From the NCBI GenBank assembly GCA_030650275.1, contig JAUSEK010000023.1, positions 107,581-171,580 of the forward strand: a stretch of 64,000 bases of DNA, given 5' to 3'. Position numbers and translations under genes: made by a program. Shown piece after piece: positions 35,107 through 60,343 of this stretch (positions are counted from its first letter, which is position 1; each line of letters begins with the position of its first letter). The notes under the pieces are model-generated. The model did no database searches, had not been told where the DNA came from, and worked only from the letters and a program-made list of their open reading frames with translations. The stretch is from Candidatus Omnitrophota bacterium. Lineage in GTDB: Bacteria > Omnitrophota > Gorgyraeia > Zapsychrales > Fredricksoniimonadaceae.

Positions 35107-38097
35107 ATGAACCCCTTGTTCCGCCAGATCATTTGCTCTATTTTGACCGTTACGTTTGCGTTAACAGCGGTCCCGCCTCTGCACGCCCAAGAGATTTACC
35201 TGCCCCAACCCGGCGTCCGCATTGGCCTAAGCCCCCAATTCAACCCCGCCGTCCTCAAAGGCCTCAAGGTCCATCCCGACAATCCGTTTCGGTTTGATTT
35301 CATATTGGATACCGGTGACGTAGAGACGCAGCATGCTGCGTCTCTACAAAACGAATCAATGAAATTGATCAAATATTTCCTCGCCTCTTTAACCATCCCC
35401 GAACAAGACCTCTGGGTCAACCTGTCTCCTTATGAGAAGGATAGAATTGTTCCTCAATCCTTTGGTCAAACCGAGATGGGACGTGACCTATTAGCCCAGG
35501 ATTATCTGCTCAAGCAGATCACCGCATCACTAATCTACCCAGAGGATGAATTCGGCAAGATCTTCTGGAAGAGGGTCTATGAAGAAGCCAACAAGAGATT
35601 TGGAACAACCAACATCCCGGTCAATACCTTCAACAAGGTCTGGATCGTGCCAGAGAAGGCCGTAGTCTATGAGAACGCGCAAGCAGGCACGGCGTATGTG
35701 GTAGAAAGCCGATTGAAGGTGATGTTGGAAGAGGATTATCTTGCCTTGGCCAACAACCAACCGCCTACCAGGGGACATGTTCCGCAGAACGTGTCCCCAA
35801 GCACCCTGCCAACCTATCAACCATTGAATCCGAAAGCATCCCAGGGAAATCCCCTTAACGCCTCACCAGAGATTAACGCATTAGGTTCTCAAATAGTCAG
35901 AGAGATTGTCATTCCCGCATTAACCAAAGAAATCAACGAAAACAAGAACTTTGCCCAACTAAGACAGGTCTACAACTCCCTTATCTTGGCCACCTGGTAC
36001 AAGAAGAAGATCAAGGACAGCATTCTCTCTCAAGTGTATGCAGATAAGAATAAGATTTCAGGCCTAACGCCAACCAGGGGACATGTTGCTGGCACCGCTA
36101 GTGCCAGTAACGTGTCCCCAAGCACGTTGCCAACCAACCCAGCATTGAATGCGAAAGCACCCCAGGGAAACCCGCCCAACGATGTCGAAGCCATCTACCA
36201 GCAATACCTCACCGCCTTCAAGAAAGGGGTCTACAACTACATCAAAGAAGAGCAGGACCCTGTGACCCGACAGATGATTCCAAGGAAGTATTTTTCGGGT
36301 GGCGTGAAATTCGGTGATGTGGCGATGGTGACTACAAAGGATGCGGCCATGCTTCCGCAGGTGGCTTCCGATCACTCCGCTATTGTTCAGACAAATTTAA
36401 ATCCAGCTGGCCGGGCGATGGCGGCTATACAGGATTGGGAAAGAGTGCGTGCTCGGGCAAAAATTTCTTTCTTCGTCAAAACATTTTTTATTATGGGAGG
36501 GACGGTTATCGGTGCAAGTGCGTTTAAGCATTACAGTCAGAACGTATACGCGGTTCTCGCAATGGGGATGTTGTACGGCTTCACAACCTTCCGTTTTGTT
36601 ATGGACGACTACTTAATAGGAAAAAGTGAACGTGCTGGGGACTATATTACGATTTCAAGGCAACCGAAGGAAAGGGACTCTTTGGGTATTCATGTCGTCC
36701 TAAATTTAAAGGGGCTGGCCGGACAACAGGAGAACGCATATACACTTATCGCGGAAGATGTGGTTAAGGTTGTTTATGAGCTTGTTGCGAACTGGAAACA
36801 AGAGGGTGGGCTTAAAGAAGTAAAATATATTACAGGAGATTCCCCGTTGCTTGTTCAGGAGAGGAGGGGTATGGGAGCAAGGTTTATGCCTAGCATAAAG
36901 CGTCTGCTCAATAAGATCGGCGTGGGGGATGAGGATATTGAAGTGCACAAACGTCAAAGAACAGATAAAAGGCAGTTTATGTTGTGGAAGATATTGTATC
37001 CGCGTGTATGGATGATAAATAATAAAACATATAGTGGCAGATTCAGGATGAATGTTTCCACGCCCGAGGCTCAGCAGGCCTTGCTTGAAAAATTGAGACC
37101 TGTTTATGATGCGTTGAACGGCGTTGATCCTAATGATCCGGAAAAGATGGCCAAGAAAAGGCGAATTTTGTTCGGCGGGAGTTTGGCGCGGGATGAAGAA
37201 GCCCAAGTGGACGATGCCACAGCCTCCGTGCAGGCCGGGCCGGACGCGGCGATGTCAAGGTCACAACAGTCAGAAAATATTAAAAGCATTGCTGATTGGA
37301 TTGATGCTCTCAAGAAAGACAATTATGTTTTGTTCCACCAAACAATGGATGATTCAGCTGAAAGAATATTACAGAGTTATTTTAAAACCAGCCCTCAAAT
37401 TAATGGGATTGCCGCAGTATATACTCGAGAAATTTTGATGGGAAATCTTCAATGGATGTCTATGTCTGCGGGAGAATTTCAGAGACGTCGTTTGGAACAG
37501 GACGGTCCCCTCGGACAAATTCACAAAGGTGCAAATGCGATAGTTGTTCTTGTTTTTCCAAAAAAAGAATTCGGAGGCGTAGATCGTTTTATCCGACTTT
37601 TCGAAGTCTTTGAGATGATTGATGAAAAAATAGGCGGCGATTGGCTTCAAGAAACAGGAGGTATGGGTGTCCCCAATAAATATGTAGCTGGATATATCCA
37701 TCCCACTGATCAATCCATTGATGTGTATATAAATCCAAATAGCGTTGTTAAACCTTTATCTGATGAGCATTGGGGATTGTTAGGCGTTGGAAATGAAAAT
37801 TTGATTGTTTTAAGGGATCAGGCGATAAAAAGTGTTATGAGCAAACAATCCGGCCCTGGAGGTATTGACTTTAAATCCGACAAGGTGGACAGCGCTTTTG
37901 AAATAAAAAGAGAGCCGGAACAAATGGGGACACGTAACGAGTACATGTCCCCATTTGTCGACCCGGTCATGCTGGAGCAATTACAAAACGCCCCGGGGTT
38001 CGTGCCGGTGATCATCAACATCCAGCCCATGACGGATTTGCGGATGTTTTTGGGGCTTCAAGAAAATAAGCCGGAAAAAGAGGAGGCTGTGTTATAA
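35107..38097 (+). CDS. Large secreted protein (996 aa), paralog A: conserved N-terminal domain + variable middle + C-terminal GGIDFKSDKVDSAF...PGFVPVIIN module
   Basis: It has a Sec signal peptide (…ALTAVPPLHAQE). It is a paralog of the 55409..60343 product and contains an internal tandem repeat. Confidence 0.7.
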   Translation: MNPLFRQIICSILTVTFALTAVPPLHAQEIYLPQPGVRIGLSPQFNPAVLKGLKVHPDNPFRFDFILDTGDVETQHAASLQNESMKLIKYFLASLTIPEQDLWVNLSPYEKDRIVPQSFGQTEMGRDLLAQDYLLKQITASLIYPEDEFGKIFWKRVYEEANKRFGTTNIPVNTFNKVWIVPEKAVVYENAQAGTAYVVESRLKVMLEEDYLALANNQPPTRGHVPQNVSPSTLPTYQPLNPKASQGNPLNASPEINALGSQIVREIVIPALTKEINENKNFAQLRQVYNSLILATWYKKKIKDSILSQVYADKNKISGLTPTRGHVAGTASASNVSPSTLPTNPALNAKAPQGNPPNDVEAIYQQYLTAFKKGVYNYIKEEQDPVTRQMIPRKYFSGGVKFGDVAMVTTKDAAMLPQVASDHSAIVQTNLNPAGRAMAAIQDWERVRARAKISFFVKTFFIMGGTVIGASAFKHYSQNVYAVLAMGMLYGFTTFRFVMDDYLIGKSERAGDYITISRQPKERDSLGIHVVLNLKGLAGQQENAYTLIAEDVVKVVYELVANWKQEGGLKEVKYITGDSPLLVQERRGMGARFMPSIKRLLNKIGVGDEDIEVHKRQRTDKRQFMLWKILYPRVWMINNKTYSGRFRMNVSTPEAQQALLEKLRPVYDALNGVDPNDPEKMAKKRRILFGGSLARDEEAQVDDATASVQAGPDAAMSRSQQSENIKSIADWIDALKKDNYVLFHQTMDDSAERILQSYFKTSPQINGIAAVYTREILMGNLQWMSMSAGEFQRRRLEQDGPLGQIHKGANAIVVLVFPKKEFGGVDRFIRLFEVFEMIDEKIGGDWLQETGGMGVPNKYVAGYIHPTDQSIDVYINPNSVVKPLSDEHWGLLGVGNENLIVLRDQAIKSVMSKQSGPGGIDFKSDKVDSAFEIKREPEQMGTRNEYMSPFVDPVMLEQLQNAPGFVPVIINIQPMTDLRMFLGLQENKPEKEEAVL

Positions 38098-41824: not shown

Positions 41825-41898
41825 TGCCCGGTGGTGTAATGGTAGCACCCGAGAATTTGGATCTCGTTGTCCAGGTTCGAATCCTGGCTGGGCAACCA
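41825..41898 (+). tRNA. tRNA-Gln (anticodon UUG), CCA encoded
   Basis: I folded the cloverleaf by hand. The acceptor stem TGCCCGG pairs with CTGGGCA, the D-arm is GTGT..GCAC and the T-arm is CCAGG-TTCGAAT-CCTGG. The anticodon stem CGAGA pairs with TCTCG, the anticodon loop is ATTTGGA, and the gene ends in ACCA. Confidence 0.85.
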
Positions 41899-41911
41899 CG
41901 TTTGCATATTT

Positions 41912-43150
41912 ATGACTGACGTTCGCGCGATCATTTTAGCCGCCGGAAAAGGGACCCGGATGAAGTCCGAGATCCCCAAGGTTTTGCATCCCGTTGCCGG
42001 CCGTCCGGTCATCGCTTACGTTCTGGACATTGTCCGTTCTTTGAAAACTTTTGTTGTCGTCGGGCACGGGGCCCAAAATGTCCGGGCCGCTTTAGGGGAC
42101 GGACTGACCTATGTTGCGCAGGATCGGCTTTTGGGAACGGCGGATGCCCTGCGCCGCGTGGCGCCGCTCTTGAAAGGGTTTCGCGGGCACGTGCTTGTCT
42201 TGTGCGGGGACACGCCGCTTTTGGAAAAACAGACGGTGCAGCGTTTGCTGGCCCAACACCGTCGCAGTCGGGCCGATGCCACGGTCCTGACCGCCCATAT
42301 CCATGATCCGCGCGGATATGGTCGCATCCTCCGCGATGCCGGCGGCCGTATTAGTGCTATCCGTGAACAAAAAGACGCCAGCCCCCGGGAAGCGCGGATC
42401 ACAGAGATCAACGTCGGGGCATATTGTTTTCAGGCGCAAAAGATTTTTGATGTGTTGAGGCGGGTCAAATGGAATGCCCGCAAAAAAGAATTTTATCTGA
42501 CGGACGTCATCGAGGTTTTATTAGCGCGGGGCGGCCGCGTGGGAACGGTCCTGGCCGGGGATGCTTCATTGGCCTTCGGGATCAACACGCGCGTGGACCT
42601 GGCCCGGGCCGAAAGGGTCATCCGGATGCGCATTTTGAGCAAACTGATGCTGGGGGGCGTGACCATCGTGGATCCGGCAACCACCTATGTGGAAACCGGT
42701 GTCAAGATCGGACGGGACACGGTGATCTATCCGTGCACCGTCATTGACCGGGATGTCGTCGTCGGGAAGAATTGCCGCGTGGGACCTTTTGCCCATTTGC
42801 GGCCCGGCACGCGCGTGGGTGACCACGTTGAGATCGGTAATTTCACGGAAGTGTCGCGCAGCCGTGTGGGCAAAAACGTGTTCATAAAACATTTTTCTTT
42901 TTTGGGTGATGCGGTCCTGGGGGCCAATGTCAATATCGGTGCTGGAACGGTGACGGCGAATTTTGACGGCAGGACCAAGAACAGGACAACAATATCCGAT
43001 GGTGCCTTTATCGGCTCGGGCGCTGTTTTGGTGGCGCCGGTCAGCGTCGGCAAGAAAGCCGTTGTGGGCGCCGGTTCGGTCGTGACAAAGGGTAAGAATA
43101 TTCCGGCCGGGGCTGTGGCGTTCGGTGTCCCGGCCAAGATCGTACGGTAG
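41912..43150 (+). CDS. glmU: Bifunctional UDP-GlcNAc pyrophosphorylase / GlcN-1-P N-acetyltransferase
   Basis: It has the N-terminal NTP-transferase motif ILAAGKGTRM and a C-terminal hexapeptide-repeat domain. Confidence 0.9.
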   Translation: MTDVRAIILAAGKGTRMKSEIPKVLHPVAGRPVIAYVLDIVRSLKTFVVVGHGAQNVRAALGDGLTYVAQDRLLGTADALRRVAPLLKGFRGHVLVLCGDTPLLEKQTVQRLLAQHRRSRADATVLTAHIHDPRGYGRILRDAGGRISAIREQKDASPREARITEINVGAYCFQAQKIFDVLRRVKWNARKKEFYLTDVIEVLLARGGRVGTVLAGDASLAFGINTRVDLARAERVIRMRILSKLMLGGVTIVDPATTYVETGVKIGRDTVIYPCTVIDRDVVVGKNCRVGPFAHLRPGTRVGDHVEIGNFTEVSRSRVGKNVFIKHFSFLGDAVLGANVNIGAGTVTANFDGRTKNRTTISDGAFIGSGAVLVAPVSVGKKAVVGAGSVVTKGKNIPAGAVAFGVPAKIVR

Positions 43151-55408: not shown

Positions 55409-58400
55409 ATGAAATACCCCGTATTCCGTCGTTTAACCTGCGCTTTGGTCATTATTACCTTTACGGCAACGATGACCCCAGCTTTGCACGCACAGGAAAT
55501 TTCGCTTCCTCAGCCCGGCGTCCGCGTATCCTTAAGCCCCGCCTTTAACCCCCCAGTCCTCAAAGGCCTCAAGGTCCATTCCGATAATCCGTTTCGTTTT
55601 GATTTTATCCTTGATCAAGGTGATTCCCTCCCCCTTGTGGGGAGGGCCAGGGAGGGGGACAAACAAGAACAACTCAAACAAGAAGCCAACAAACTCATCA
55701 AATACTTCCTCGCCTCTCTGACCGTGCCAGAGAAAGACCTCTGGGTCAACCTCTCTCCCTATGAGAAAGACCGTATCGTCCCCACATCTTTCGGTCAAAC
55801 CGAGATGGGAAGGGATCTTCTGGCCCAGGACTATCTGCTTAAGCAAATAACCGCATCTCTGATCTATCCAGAGGATGAATTGGGTAAGACCTTCTGGAAC
55901 AGGATCTACCAAGAAGCATCCAGGAGATACCATACAACCAACATCCCGGTCAATACATTCAACAAGGTATGGATCGTACCCGAGAAAGCCGTAGTGTACG
56001 AGAACGCGCAGGCGGGAACGGCTTACGTTGTCGAATCCAGATTGAAGGTGATGCTAGAAGAAGATTATTTGGCATTATCCAAAAATACCGTAGGGGCGCA
56101 ATTTATTGCGCCCGATAAGGGTTCGATGAATCGAACCCCTACGGATGTTAATTCGTTGGGTTCCCAGATTATCCGTGAGATCGTCATCCCCGCCTTAACC
56201 AAGGAAATCAACGAAGGAAAGAACTTCGCCCAACTCCGTCAGGTCTACAATTCTCTGATCCTTGCCACCTGGTACAAGAAGAAGATCAAGGATAGTATTC
56301 TCAATAAAGTTTATTCCGATAGGAATAAAGTTTTAGGCATTGGTTACGATACGCCAACCAGGGGACATGTTGCTGGCACCGCCAGTGCCAGTAACGTGTC
56401 CCCAAGCACGCTGCCAAGCGACCCAGGGTTGAATGCGAAAGCACCCCAGGGAAACCCGCCCAACGATGTCGAAGCCATCTACCAGCAATACCTCACCGCC
56501 TTCAAGAAAGGCGTCTACAACTACATCAAAGAAGAACAAGATCCCATCACCCAACAGATTATCCCGAGGAAATATTTTTCGGGTGGTGTTAAATGGGGCA
56601 TGGCAATGCTTCAAACAACAACAGATCAGGCCATGCTCCCGCAAGTAGTTTCCGATCATGCCGCTATTGTTCAGACAAATTTAAATCCAGCCGACCGTGC
56701 GATATTCAGTAATATCACCAGTAGGGCTGATTCAGCAGCTGCTAGCCGAAGAATTCTATCGTTTAATCAAGCTAAAATGGCATTTGCCGACTTCTTGCTA
56801 GGCAGAGATGGAAAAAGCAAACAAATTGTTGATTTGCCAAGACTAGTGGATAGCCTCAATGCAATGAATAAACCTACAAGAGAAAAATTCCTAGAGTGGA
56901 CTGTGAATATGGATGATAATTGGTATCAGTATGGTTTATCCAATCATAGTAAAGCTAAATATCGTTCGCTGGCATTATTGTTAATGGAAATGGAAAGCCA
57001 TAACCGAAATGCTCCGGCTATGAAACTTTGGAATTTTCTTTCCCAACGGTTTGGAGCGTCTCGTTTTCACACAGAACAATGGGTATCTTGGCAACCTGCA
57101 ATTGACCAAAATCTGTTAAAGGATGTATTACGCATTGCGAAACGATATGGGCTGCGCGCTCATGGGACATTGAATTTTAACATGTTCGGGATCAATAAAT
57201 ATTCTGCTCTCAACGGTTTCTTTCAGAATGAATGGGGAATGCTTAATATCATGATCGATGGGAATCTGTCTCGGGGAAGCATTGGCCCTTTAGCGCCTGT
57301 TGAAGATGAAGGGAATCCGAATGTCGCGGCAGCATTATATGGCCCTTTTTATATTATTGTTGATAAACGTCAAGATGAAGTGCTGCCTGAGAGGCGTTTG
57401 AATGAGCATGACAGAGTTTCTCGAAAGGATCAGTTGATTTATCTTGTCCCAAGCGAAAAAGAAGTACTTTTTTTCAGTGAAGGTATTCGTGAAGCTTTGC
57501 ATTTGGGCCTCATTGATCAGGGAATCGCTGACGAGGTATTATCAAAACTTATGACGTATGGACAGTTCGTGATTAATCAAGCCGCATTGGCTAATCTTGA
57601 AACTCCCGGTGGCATCGACTTCAAATCTGATAAAGTGGACAGCGCCCAATTAAGCCAAGACCGGGCGATGATGACCAGACGAAATTTTCTGTCTTCGTCG
57701 GTTGCGGCAGGTATTGGACTGGTATTACCAAATGCCACCCTTGGGCAATCACTCGCAGGCTTTGGCAGGACGCCTATACCTGATAAACCAGATCAGGTCC
57801 AAGTACGATCTATTACAGGTTTTGAAACCCATGGCAATCGATACAATCTCACTTTTGAGGGGTTTAATCATAATCAGGGCGTAATAAAATCGGCGGGGCG
57901 GCAAGCGCGGGAAGTGGGTCATTTTAATTTCTTTATTTATCCCAATGGGGGATCGATACTAAGGATTGTCGGAGAATTCCCGGGGATCAATGAATCCGCG
58001 CACTTCTTTTCAGTTAACCGGGATCGGGATAAGATCAATTATATAGGCTCCACCGATAACTCTGCAGCGTTAGGGGATATTGCTTTAAACGAAGGGTTAT
58101 GGGTGCTTCTCGGTGAGTATTTAACGACAGGTTCTTTGCCTTCGGAATTTGACCAACAATTTAATATTTTATTTCCTCGTTGGGCGCCACTGAATTCTTT
58201 GACCGATCGATCGCCGTTTAATTTCTCAACAGGGCTCGTTAATGTTTTATCTCCGCGTTTTGTTCCTCCGGATGATAAAACGCTTTTGCTCGTCGGGCAG
58301 CAGCGAGACATCATTGAGGGTTATGTTCGCGCTGTTGGAGTGCCCGGTGGGTTTATGTCCTATACATCCATTAAACATTTGGAGGGATTAACCACGTTGG

Positions 58401-60343
58401 ATGATTACGGCGGCGGAATTCAAGATGCGCAGGACCTGGTTGATCTGTATCCGAATACCGTCTTACAACTTGGTTTGTACATGGTGGATGAATTGAATAA
58501 TGTAAATAGCGGTATATACGATGCGAATATTCGAAAGTTGGGGGAGTGGATCAAGCAAACAAGGCGTCCGGTGTATTTGCGCATTGGCTATGAATTTGAT
58601 TTGCCCGACAATAAGTATAAGCCGCAAGAATATATAAAGGCCTATCAAAAGATCGTCGACATATTGAGACAGCAAAAGGTAACGAATGTATCGTTTGTAT
58701 GGCATTCTGCAGTTTATCCGAGCCAAGAAAAATCTGCGCAGGACTGGTATCCGGGGGATGAATATGTTGATTGGGTCGCGATGACCCGTATGGATCCTTC
58801 ACAAGATTTACAAGGGACTCGGTTAGCTCAGTGGGCCAGAGGGCACAACAAACCTTTTATGATCGCGGAGGCATCTCCGATGGGTCGGAAGACTACGGAG
58901 GAAAAGAAAGTATGGTTCGACACTCTTTTGCCATTTATCAGACAAAACAATATCAAGGCCCTTGGGTATATCAACAGTAATTGGGATGCATTGGGTTTAT
59001 TTTGGGATAGGGGCTGGGGGGACCAGCAAGTGCAGAATGATCCGGCAATTCGTCAATTGTGGATGGACAGAGTCATCCAGGATGGTTCTTATTTGCAATC
59101 GTCAGCAGATCTATTCAGGCAATACCTCAATTTTAACCCAAGCCTTGACCGGGCGATGGCGGCCGCAGATCAGGCTGGGCCGGACGCGGCGATGAAGGTG
59201 ACGCGGCGTACTCTTTTGAGAGGCGCGGGCGCTACGGTGGCGGTGAGGGTATTGGAGGGGGCGTTTGGCAGCCTTGCACTGCAGGCAAGCGGGAACACCA
59301 ACGCTCCCGACAAGAATAGTGTTCTGGCGATGTCTTGGGATATCCTTGATAAGACGGCACTTCGGATGAATTTACCGAAAGCATTGCTTGAGAACATCAA
59401 GGCCGCGCTTCTGGAAGAGGCCACTAAAATATACTCAGAATACAAAGACACGCTTCCTCCAAGAGTACGCTCGATCCTCGGGGATGATTTTAGAAAGCCG
59501 GTTCCTTTTTACGCGCGGTGGCTTGTCAGCAGGTTTATCAAGAATGAGATCGAGCCAAGGATAAAATATCTCAGTAAATACACCGCCTTTCTTGACCCGG
59601 ATGAAGTGGGTATCTTAGATTCTGAGCCGGATTTGGTGAAATATTTCGTTAAAAGAACCGTGAGGTTATACGCTGAAAGAGGTCCGGATTGGATGACCGA
59701 GGAAGAAGCGGCTAAAAGCGTGATCGGTCTGTTTGCTTACTTGATCAAAGAAAGTAATGGCAAGTTTCCTCTTTCGCAGGAGGAAATTGGCAATTATTAT
59801 TATTTATTAAAGAGGGATAAACTCAATACCCTTACAGATTTCGATTTAAAGAATGTAAGGTTGGTGGAGGGTTATCGCGAAAGATTAAAGAAATATTACC
59901 GGATAAAATTTGCTCCGAATGAATTGCGTTGGGATATACAAAGTCAGAGAGGGGAAAGAGAGATTGTTCGGGTGGAATATCTACCGACCCATGATAATGT
60001 GCAAGTTATTGGATATGGTCTTGAAGAGTATAGTAAAATGGATCGTCGAGTGATCGCACTTTTGAGGTTGCGTGTTTATTTATCGGAGAAAAACGGGGGC
60101 GACCATCCGCAGACATCCACAGGCGGTATTGATTTCAATGCCGACAAGGTGGACAGCGCTTTTGCGGTGAAAAATAGCGGCGGCGCGATCAAATTTAACA
60201 TCGACCCCGCCATGCTCCAGCAATTACAGGATTCCCCCGGTTTCGTGCCCGTGATCATCAACGTCAGTCCGCTCAAAGACCTGCCTGCATTTTTGGGATC
60301 AAACGACCCTGTTCCAGTGTCTTCCAAAGCCGCTGCCCTTTAG
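55409..60343 (+). CDS. Large mosaic secreted protein (1644 aa), paralog B: paralog-A-like N-terminal unit + Tat-signal/GH26-like unit + Tat-signal/unknown unit with C-terminal GGIDFNADKVDSAF...PGFVPVIIN module
   Basis: It has a Sec signal peptide and a ~440-aa N-terminal domain homologous to 35107..38097. Internal twin-arginine signal-like segments start at 57668 (MMTRRNFLSS...) and 59204 (MKVTRRTLLRGAGATVAV...). GH26-like motifs (VYLRIGYEFD, WYPGDEYVDWV) are present. Confidence 0.65.
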   Translation: MKYPVFRRLTCALVIITFTATMTPALHAQEISLPQPGVRVSLSPAFNPPVLKGLKVHSDNPFRFDFILDQGDSLPLVGRAREGDKQEQLKQEANKLIKYFLASLTVPEKDLWVNLSPYEKDRIVPTSFGQTEMGRDLLAQDYLLKQITASLIYPEDELGKTFWNRIYQEASRRYHTTNIPVNTFNKVWIVPEKAVVYENAQAGTAYVVESRLKVMLEEDYLALSKNTVGAQFIAPDKGSMNRTPTDVNSLGSQIIREIVIPALTKEINEGKNFAQLRQVYNSLILATWYKKKIKDSILNKVYSDRNKVLGIGYDTPTRGHVAGTASASNVSPSTLPSDPGLNAKAPQGNPPNDVEAIYQQYLTAFKKGVYNYIKEEQDPITQQIIPRKYFSGGVKWGMAMLQTTTDQAMLPQVVSDHAAIVQTNLNPADRAIFSNITSRADSAAASRRILSFNQAKMAFADFLLGRDGKSKQIVDLPRLVDSLNAMNKPTREKFLEWTVNMDDNWYQYGLSNHSKAKYRSLALLLMEMESHNRNAPAMKLWNFLSQRFGASRFHTEQWVSWQPAIDQNLLKDVLRIAKRYGLRAHGTLNFNMFGINKYSALNGFFQNEWGMLNIMIDGNLSRGSIGPLAPVEDEGNPNVAAALYGPFYIIVDKRQDEVLPERRLNEHDRVSRKDQLIYLVPSEKEVLFFSEGIREALHLGLIDQGIADEVLSKLMTYGQFVINQAALANLETPGGIDFKSDKVDSAQLSQDRAMMTRRNFLSSSVAAGIGLVLPNATLGQSLAGFGRTPIPDKPDQVQVRSITGFETHGNRYNLTFEGFNHNQGVIKSAGRQAREVGHFNFFIYPNGGSILRIVGEFPGINESAHFFSVNRDRDKINYIGSTDNSAALGDIALNEGLWVLLGEYLTTGSLPSEFDQQFNILFPRWAPLNSLTDRSPFNFSTGLVNVLSPRFVPPDDKTLLLVGQQRDIIEGYVRAVGVPGGFMSYTSIKHLEGLTTLDDYGGGIQDAQDLVDLYPNTVLQLGLYMVDELNNVNSGIYDANIRKLGEWIKQTRRPVYLRIGYEFDLPDNKYKPQEYIKAYQKIVDILRQQKVTNVSFVWHSAVYPSQEKSAQDWYPGDEYVDWVAMTRMDPSQDLQGTRLAQWARGHNKPFMIAEASPMGRKTTEEKKVWFDTLLPFIRQNNIKALGYINSNWDALGLFWDRGWGDQQVQNDPAIRQLWMDRVIQDGSYLQSSADLFRQYLNFNPSLDRAMAAADQAGPDAAMKVTRRTLLRGAGATVAVRVLEGAFGSLALQASGNTNAPDKNSVLAMSWDILDKTALRMNLPKALLENIKAALLEEATKIYSEYKDTLPPRVRSILGDDFRKPVPFYARWLVSRFIKNEIEPRIKYLSKYTAFLDPDEVGILDSEPDLVKYFVKRTVRLYAERGPDWMTEEEAAKSVIGLFAYLIKESNGKFPLSQEEIGNYYYLLKRDKLNTLTDFDLKNVRLVEGYRERLKKYYRIKFAPNELRWDIQSQRGEREIVRVEYLPTHDNVQVIGYGLEEYSKMDRRVIALLRLRVYLSEKNGGDHPQTSTGGIDFNADKVDSAFAVKNSGGAIKFNIDPAMLQQLQDSPGFVPVIINVSPLKDLPAFLGSNDPVPVSSKAAAL

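Follow-up and report, generated by a model that had tools for sequence, protein, structure and literature searches.

How can two genes that have long since diverged share, 20 kb apart, a short stretch that is almost identical letter for letter? The question arises in a 64,000-nucleotide (nt) stretch of DNA from a Candidatus Omnitrophota bacterium (contig JAUSEK010000023.1, positions 107,581 to 171,580), the whole of which is referred to here as the window. It carries two paralogous genes, A and B, and in each of them a small hairpin-forming element is read in frame within the shared stretch. The element, together with 68 nt of the host coding sequence that follows it, has very probably been homogenised by recent gene conversion between A and B. 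The genes and the two sides of the proposed tract are located as follows.

35107..38097, + strand: gene A, 996 amino acids (aa), from the list of open reading frames (ORFs)
55409..60343, + strand: gene B, 1644 aa, from the ORF list
36067..36251, + strand: probable conversion tract in A, made up of the element copy A2 and 68 nt of downstream host coding sequence (mismatch profile, synonymous divergence or dS, permutation)
56351..56535, + strand: probable conversion tract in B (BLASTN, dS, mismatch profile)

A and B are old paralogs of a very large Omnitrophota family, and they are its only members inside the window (tblastn). Their N-terminal domains are 73% identical over aa 3-438, and 80 aa at the C-terminus (in A, in the C-terminal stretch 37747-38094) are common to both at 47% identity (BLASTP). 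A preliminary description of this DNA, made from the letters and the ORF list, had called the two genes giant; at 996 and 1644 aa they are better termed large. The same description had reported a near-identical block of about 240 bp, with a second copy that starts at 56352. A BLASTN search with 36040-36330 against the window recovers this block as 244 nt at 91.8% identity, 36067-36310 against 56351-56594, so that the block is real and its second copy begins one nucleotide earlier.

The high identity is confined to about 185 nt of the block. Between 36067-36251 and 56351-56535 there are 7 mismatches in 185 nt (96.2%), located at 36099, 36127, 36134, 36136, 36143, 36144 and 36228, and a perfect run of 83 nt extends over 36145-36227. 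The last 59 nt, 36252-36310, hold 13 mismatches, mainly at third codon positions, and with an identity of about 80% they are as diverged as the remaining domain. Identity is 79.7% over 36247-36310 and 83% in the 72 nt upstream of the block. The pairwise nucleotide identity profile of the two genes, which had been put forward as the means of either supporting or refuting the block, rises above the flanks in 36067-36251 only.

The contrast is sharpest at synonymous positions. By the Nei-Gojobori method, dS falls from 1.13 over the remaining 337 aligned codons to 0.107 in the 39 codons of the element and 0.086 in the 21 codons that follow. Where both genes encode the same amino acid, they use the same codon in 149 of 257 cases outside the tract, in 34 of 36 within the element (Fisher p=5e-6) and in 20 of 21 in the 3′ flank (p=3.4e-4). 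Permutations that kept codon position and amino-acid-identity class produced a run as long as 83 nt once in 20,000 (p ~5e-5).

The window probably derives from a metagenome-assembled genome (MAG), and the paralogs share repeats; reads of one paralog could have been built into the other during metagenome assembly. Such an artefact is extremely unlikely. A collapsed or chimeric join would not give diverged sequence on both sides and 7 differences inside, including a cluster of five, and the longest exact run, 83 nt, falls short of the usual length of assembler k-mers or reads. A comparable patch is also present in an independently assembled genome, in the paralog pair L006/L012 that is described below.

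The first 117 nt of the tract are a copy of the element, inserted at one of three variable loops of the N-terminal domain (site 2 in the numbering used here). The copies in A and B and their hairpins are as follows.

36067..36183, + strand: element copy A2, 117 nt or 39 codons, in frame at site 2 of A, encoding TPTRGHVAGTASASNVSPSTLPTNPALNAKAPQGNPPN; it aligns with about 70 dispersed copies
56351..56467, + strand: element copy B2, 117 nt, in frame at site 2 of B (alignment with A2 and dispersed copies)
36077..36119, + strand: A2 hairpin, 19-nt arms GGGGACATGTTGCTGGCAC / GTGCCAGTAACGTGTCCCC and a 5-nt loop (inverted-repeat search)
56361..56403, + strand: B2 hairpin, with the same arms as A2 and a loop that differs by one base (inverted repeat; fold z -5.8)

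The sense strand of the A2 hairpin pairs completely by means of two G.U wobbles. Folded as RNA, the A2 element reaches -48.2 kcal/mol with z -5.2 in the sense orientation and z -2.0 in the antisense. The suggestion that the two genes share an insertion cassette describes these 117 nt well, since they are a copy of a dispersed repeat that is missing at site 2 in most homologs and present in many other contexts. The hairpin, a third copy of the element in gene A (A1) and the membership of the cassette in a dispersed repeat family had been overlooked.

The element does not account for the whole tract. Past its 3′ end, 36184-36251 contains a single mismatch in 68 nt, and this segment is host coding sequence (DVEAIYQQYLTAFKKGVYNYIKEE), conserved in homologs that have no insert. 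Two independent recent insertions of one active master copy into the same loop of A and B, with no exchange between the genes, would leave this segment as diverged as its surroundings, where only 58% of the codons for identical amino acids agree. Among the copies seen, the 68-nt segment is not carried along by the element in contexts outside the family. As insertion cannot homogenise its flank, only homologous exchange explains the loss of synonymous differences in 36184-36251. The near-identity thus runs on into host sequence in a manner that argues for gene conversion, which had been proposed from the outset, and a double insertion is very unlikely. It does draw some strength from the dispersal of the element over many unrelated sites, hence its repeated movement, and from the fact that the inner-hairpin subtype of the window's copies occurs at another site, site 1, in the loci L035 and L066.

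Under gene conversion, about 185 nt, the whole element and the next 68 nt, would recently have been copied between the paralogs by homologous recombination, and this would have lowered dS approximately tenfold. The 3′ edge of the tract is sharp and falls between 36228 and 36252. The 5′ edge lies directly after a 9-nt indel, an extra GGTTACGAT in B, and on this side the tract would have been halted by the indel and by the diverged sequence that starts at the element terminus. Speculatively, the long perfect hairpin may itself have triggered the event, for instance if it stalled replication or was cleaved and the ectopic paralog then served as the template for repair. The case resembles interlocus gene conversion in that a short near-identical tract, with synonymous differences erased, lies in old diverged paralogs 20 kb apart and has sharp edges, one of them at a heterology (the indel). 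It departs from it in being centred on an in-frame dispersed hairpin repeat and not on ordinary coding sequence.

A second pair of paralogs, L006 and L012 of the Omnitrophota MAG nDJH2bin13, is 73% identical in aa sequence. Their nucleotide identity is 0.92-0.98 over an element at site 1 and about 0.6-0.8 elsewhere, which indicates that patchy homogenisation, or recent co-insertion, is recurrent. Conversion between paralogs is probably one route by which such inserts spread and stay alike within a genome.

Several points weigh against conversion as the explanation. The high-identity patch of L006/L012 barely exceeds the element, so that a single master copy, recently inserted, could account for that pair. 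The 5′ edge of the tract in A and B coincides exactly with the element terminus, as a fresh insertion would also give, and the evidence for conversion consequently rests on the 68-nt extension at the 3′ side. The comparison involves two sequences, with no third close paralog or outgroup for A and B, and the cluster of five mismatches at 36127-36144 interrupts the tract. About three of these five clustered differences between A2 and B2 match A1, at 35806-35823. Micro-conversion from A1 to A2 as the source of the private differences of A2 was considered and dropped, the match of about 3/5 not being significant.

What, then, is the element? It is a non-autonomous dispersed repeat of approximately 115-130 nt. 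It consists of a 5′ terminus (A)ACGCCAA, a hairpin, a conserved 3′ half and a 3′ terminus ..AACG(C/A)C. The hairpin, flanked by CCAG and AAGC and free of a GTAG or CGTC head, has a conserved outer stem GGGGACATGT/ACGTGTCCCC around a variable nested inner palindrome. The palindromic part is limited to the 5′ third of the element, and the 3′ half, about 70 nt and non-palindromic, is conserved in sequence as AAGC..TTGCCAAGC..TTGAATGYGAAAGCACCCCAGGGAAAC. The consensus termini, AACGCCAACC... and ...CCTAACG(C/A)C, form a short direct repeat (AACGCC ... AACG(C/A)C); terminal inverted repeats were looked for in the element copies and none were found. The same AACGCC-like motif stands beside copies in many contexts, and it may be either a specific target that is duplicated or a part of the element. 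In the search for a copy-specific target-site duplication, no orthologous site turned up in both an empty and a filled state.

The inner hairpin occurs as discrete subtypes, with either an A-rich loop or GC-rich nested palindromes, at the tip of which GAA or GAAA is frequent. The stem persists in each of the 53 inner variants, with a length of 11-20 bp, and all four Watson-Crick combinations are found at the first inner pair (pair 11). In an RNAalifold analysis of 57 full-length copies, no supported consensus structure appeared in the 3′ half or past the first hairpin. The third copy in the window lies approximately 300 nt upstream of A2, in the same gene, and has no counterpart of the 15-nt nested inner palindrome of A2.

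35760..35862, + strand: element copy A1, in frame at site 1 of A (BLASTN, 75.4% over 114 columns against A2)
35771-35798, + strand: A1 hairpin GGGGACATGTTC / GAACGTGTCCCC (inverted repeat; fold z -3.8)

Two scans have revealed how widely the element is distributed, with about 80 copies in Omnitrophota genomes and metagenomes in addition to those of the window. A search for the 3′ motif in one genome per species returned 14 loci, 12 of them real and located in Omnitrophota-type MAGs, with several per genome. The other two, L011 (Magnetococcales) and L014 (Holophagaceae), are without the hairpin and were discarded as matches by chance. The genome of the window was not part of this representative set, and its three copies are counted separately. 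A metagenome scan keyed on the outer stem produced 62 loci with approximately 68 distinct copies. About 50 of these metagenome copies are within genes of the same family as A and B, at three loop sites.

Outside the family, L005 and L026 carry the element in frame in an SMC-like protein, L010, L022 and L042 in the linker of an unrelated two-domain protein, and L076 and L037 at one C-terminus. In L005 and L026 the element occupies the same position of the SMC-like protein in two divergent genomes, and the inner hairpins differ (TCAAGACAGAACATCAGAGAA, TACCGAAGGGAA). Either the inner palindrome has been swapped in place or the site has been hit twice. Further copies lie between co-directional genes (L017, L018, L020, L021, L023, L024, L036, L037, L054, L057, L062). 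There the upstream stop codon is 0-5 nt from the 5′ end of the element or within it, and the next start codon follows soon after the 3′ end. The intergenic copies thereby fill the spacer between the genes; one stop codon, for instance, is the TAA inside TAACGCC. This placement may reflect a preference for targets that resemble AACGCC at stop codons.

All copies are in the sense orientation relative to the host gene or the neighbouring genes. In 65 of 68 copies, insertion in antisense would leave one frame or more open; stop codons thus do not explain the bias towards the sense strand. The reading frame itself is not fixed, as the 5′ half reads PTRGHV in 36 copies, QPGDM in 18 and NQGTC in 1. 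As the element is read in different frames, its conservation is at the level of the nucleotide and not of the peptide.

Such observations invite a different answer to the opening question. The identity of A2 and B2 could have been kept since the duplication by purifying selection on nucleotides, if the element had a function on the sense strand, as RNA or as DNA, for instance as a hairpin that regulates or stabilises or as a site to which a protein binds. The strict orientation would fit, as would the T.G wobble of the outer stem, which pairs on the sense strand only, and the 3′ half, whose sequence is conserved across contexts and reading frames. The inner stems covary, and GAA or GAAA forms the loop of many of them. 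The sense fold is the more stable in 50 of 53 variants, a figure that is partly built in by a search pattern that fixed the wobble. Self-complementary inner parts, on the other hand, could arise from palindrome generation without any selection. The consensus structure is limited to the first hairpin, and an Rfam cmscan of 35000-57000 at E<=1 returned a transfer RNA (tRNA) only and no match for the element.

The behaviour of other copies is more telling. Within gene A, the identity of A1 to A2 is only 75%. L004 and L007, two site-2 copies in one other genome, have different inner hairpins and also disagree at synonymous sites downstream. Taken together, these two comparisons make nucleotide constraint an unlikely cause of the identity, because other copies diverge freely and the inner hairpin may be replaced outright. 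Constraint on the element would in any case leave unexplained why synonymous sites agree in the 68 nt of host sequence further downstream. Selection since the duplication is for these reasons improbable to much the same degree as a double insertion, and recent gene conversion continues to give the best account of the tract.

A separate matter is whether the element does anything at all for its host. It is possible, if rather unlikely, that the GGGGACATGT-hairpin element is a strand-specific functional module of Omnitrophota, placed without exception on the transcribed sense strand, in coding loops and right behind stop codons, and not merely passive selfish DNA. It could act as an RNA-level hairpin, with a role in mRNA stability or in translational pausing between domains, or at the DNA level as a recombination hotspot for patchy conversion. 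If this were true, the element would contribute to concerted evolution and loop diversification over hundreds of secreted paralogs with interchangeable cargo.

Among the small repeats already described, the element behaves like the Rickettsia palindromic elements (RPEs), which are small hairpin repeats, often in frame in unrelated genes (PMC10969869). RPEs are of approximately 100-150 bp, non-autonomous, dispersed and hairpin-forming; they add a peptide without loss of the ORF and are also found in intergenic positions. The Omnitrophota element may be said to resemble this class of in-frame palindromic repeats. The likeness is one of behaviour, across different phyla, and implies no membership of an RPE family. 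The element is unlike the RPEs in that it is palindromic in its 5′ third only, has a modular inner stem with nested palindromes and is translated in at least two frames. Moreover, three loops of one huge family of paralogs hold most of its copies, and every copy seen is in the sense orientation.

The repetitive extragenic palindromic (REP) sequences and the related REPINs are palindromes tagged with GTAG or CGTC (PMC3733652). The element shares with them a short GC-rich palindrome, dispersal and a frequent position just past stop codons in operons. It differs in having no GTAG or CGTC head, in its non-palindromic 3′ half of about 70 nt and in lying mostly inside coding sequence; the head is the feature on which identification as a REP or REPIN fails. 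Bacterial MITEs (miniature transposable elements with inverted repeats), for example Correia and ERIC (reviewed in PMC10969869), are comparable in size, are non-autonomous and dispersed, sometimes form intragenic in-frame fusions and are co-transcribed with their neighbours. Identification as a MITE fails on the terminal inverted repeats, in place of which the element has direct-repeat termini; it also has no known parent insertion sequence and is strictly sense. The repeat family is apparently undescribed and seems new. In the open-access literature, a scope that does not prove novelty, no paper was found that links Omnitrophota to palindromic or in-frame repeats or to MITEs.

The protein family in which the copies are concentrated is a very large one. 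More than 1630 homologs of the N-terminal domain are found, all named ones being from Candidatus Omnitrophica, and they vary extremely in their C-terminal parts. The closest homolog shows about 65-71% identity, and a look-up by exact protein returned no strain variants of A or B on record. When both proteins were scanned, the N-terminal domain matched no Pfam or NCBIfam family; B gave only a weak GH26 match and a match to a twin-arginine translocation (TAT) signal. Gene A is composed of a signal peptide, the Omnitrophota-conserved N-terminal domain (aa 1 to ~440), a variable middle and the C-terminal module of about 80 aa. In homologs the N-terminal domain is joined to highly different cargo, including methyltransferase, HAD, GH26 and kinase ATPase domains and others.

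An alignment of 60 homologs contains hypervariable spacers at site 1, at site 2 and at a third position near aa 70, site 0. In each of them the most common length is the minimal one, and inserts make up a long tail beyond it. In A, the three loops are near aa 70, 220-250 and 320-360. The insert-free form of site 2, GVNIDDPQEKEKIYQ, has 23 residues and is modal in 49 of 89 proteins, whereas the spacer is 55-58 residues long in A and B. An AlphaFold model built from 43 sequences places sites 1 and 2 in coil between helices, at residues 221-249 and 313-357, with a predicted local distance difference test (pLDDT) score below 50 there. The model as a whole is weak (pLDDT 64, predicted template modelling score 0.56), so that the loop assignment is only indicative, a point that counts against placing too much on it. 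A Foldseek search of the model against the PDB found no structural match, the best E being approximately 1.3.

The three loops of the N-terminal domain repeatedly take up short palindromic DNA repeats in frame. Many of the inserts of other homologs (VIPAKAGIQ, VIARSEATKQS, RAGLEPAPT and others) look like translated GC-rich palindromic repeats. Gene B itself has a palindromic insert at all three loops: site 0 holds a CCCTCCCC/GGGGAGGG hairpin, site 1 a REP-like doublet with GTAG heads, and site 2 the GGGGACATGT element. The first two are as follows.

55626..55646, + strand: short in-frame hairpin insert CCCTCCCC/GGGGAGGG at site 0 of B, encoding SLPLVGRAREGD
56088..56144, + strand: GTAG-headed doublet CCGTAGGGGCGCAATTTATTGCGCCC ... 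GGGTTCGATGAATCGAACCCCTACGG, in frame at site 1 of B, encoding VGAQFIAPDKGSMNRTPT (inverted repeats)

The site-1 insert of B is unrelated to A1, which is at the matching position in A. It folds to -35.7 kcal/mol (z -7.0), and GTAG is present on both of its arms, as in a REP doublet. Insert peptides of B recur at matching sites in two homologs: P0005 carries the peptide of 56088-56144 at the same site, and P0004 has a similar peptide at site 0. It appears that several unrelated repeat families use these loops as a general sink.

The conversion tract between A and B is in itself ordinary and of limited interest; the repeat family is less routine. It is a small hairpin repeat that is found mainly inside coding sequence in Omnitrophota, a poorly known uncultivated phylum, and its copies are concentrated in three loops of secreted proteins that form one huge, uncharacterised family. 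Rickettsia is the best-known case of selfish DNA within protein-coding genes, and the phenomenon is thereby extended to a distant phylum. The family offers a natural system for studying the tolerance of proteins to palindromic inserts, as well as the spread of such inserts among paralogs by conversion as opposed to transposition. It also carries a warning for annotation, as peptides like PTRGHV..NVSPSTLP..KAPQGN, VGAQFIAP..MNRTPT and VIPAKAGIQ are here translated repeats and not domain signatures. Phylogenies of the family can likewise be misled by identity patches that are centred on the element.

The remainder of gene B differs from that of gene A. Its middle is modular, with TAT-signal-like segments and a GH26-like region, and several modules appear to be combined in one ORF. 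The N-terminal domain is followed by a PGGIDFKSDKVDSA linker (~aa 698), a TAT-signal-like MMTRRNFL segment at aa 754-773 and the GH26-like region at aa 1070-1125. Near aa 1270 there is a DQAGPDAAM motif with a second TAT-like segment, KVTRRTLL, and this is followed by GGIDFNADKVDSAF and the C-terminal module of about 80 aa. Between the two genes, a tRNA gene lies on the + strand at 41825-41895 (Rfam RF00005, 59 bits), where it overlaps the nominal start of a listed ORF, 41867-43150.

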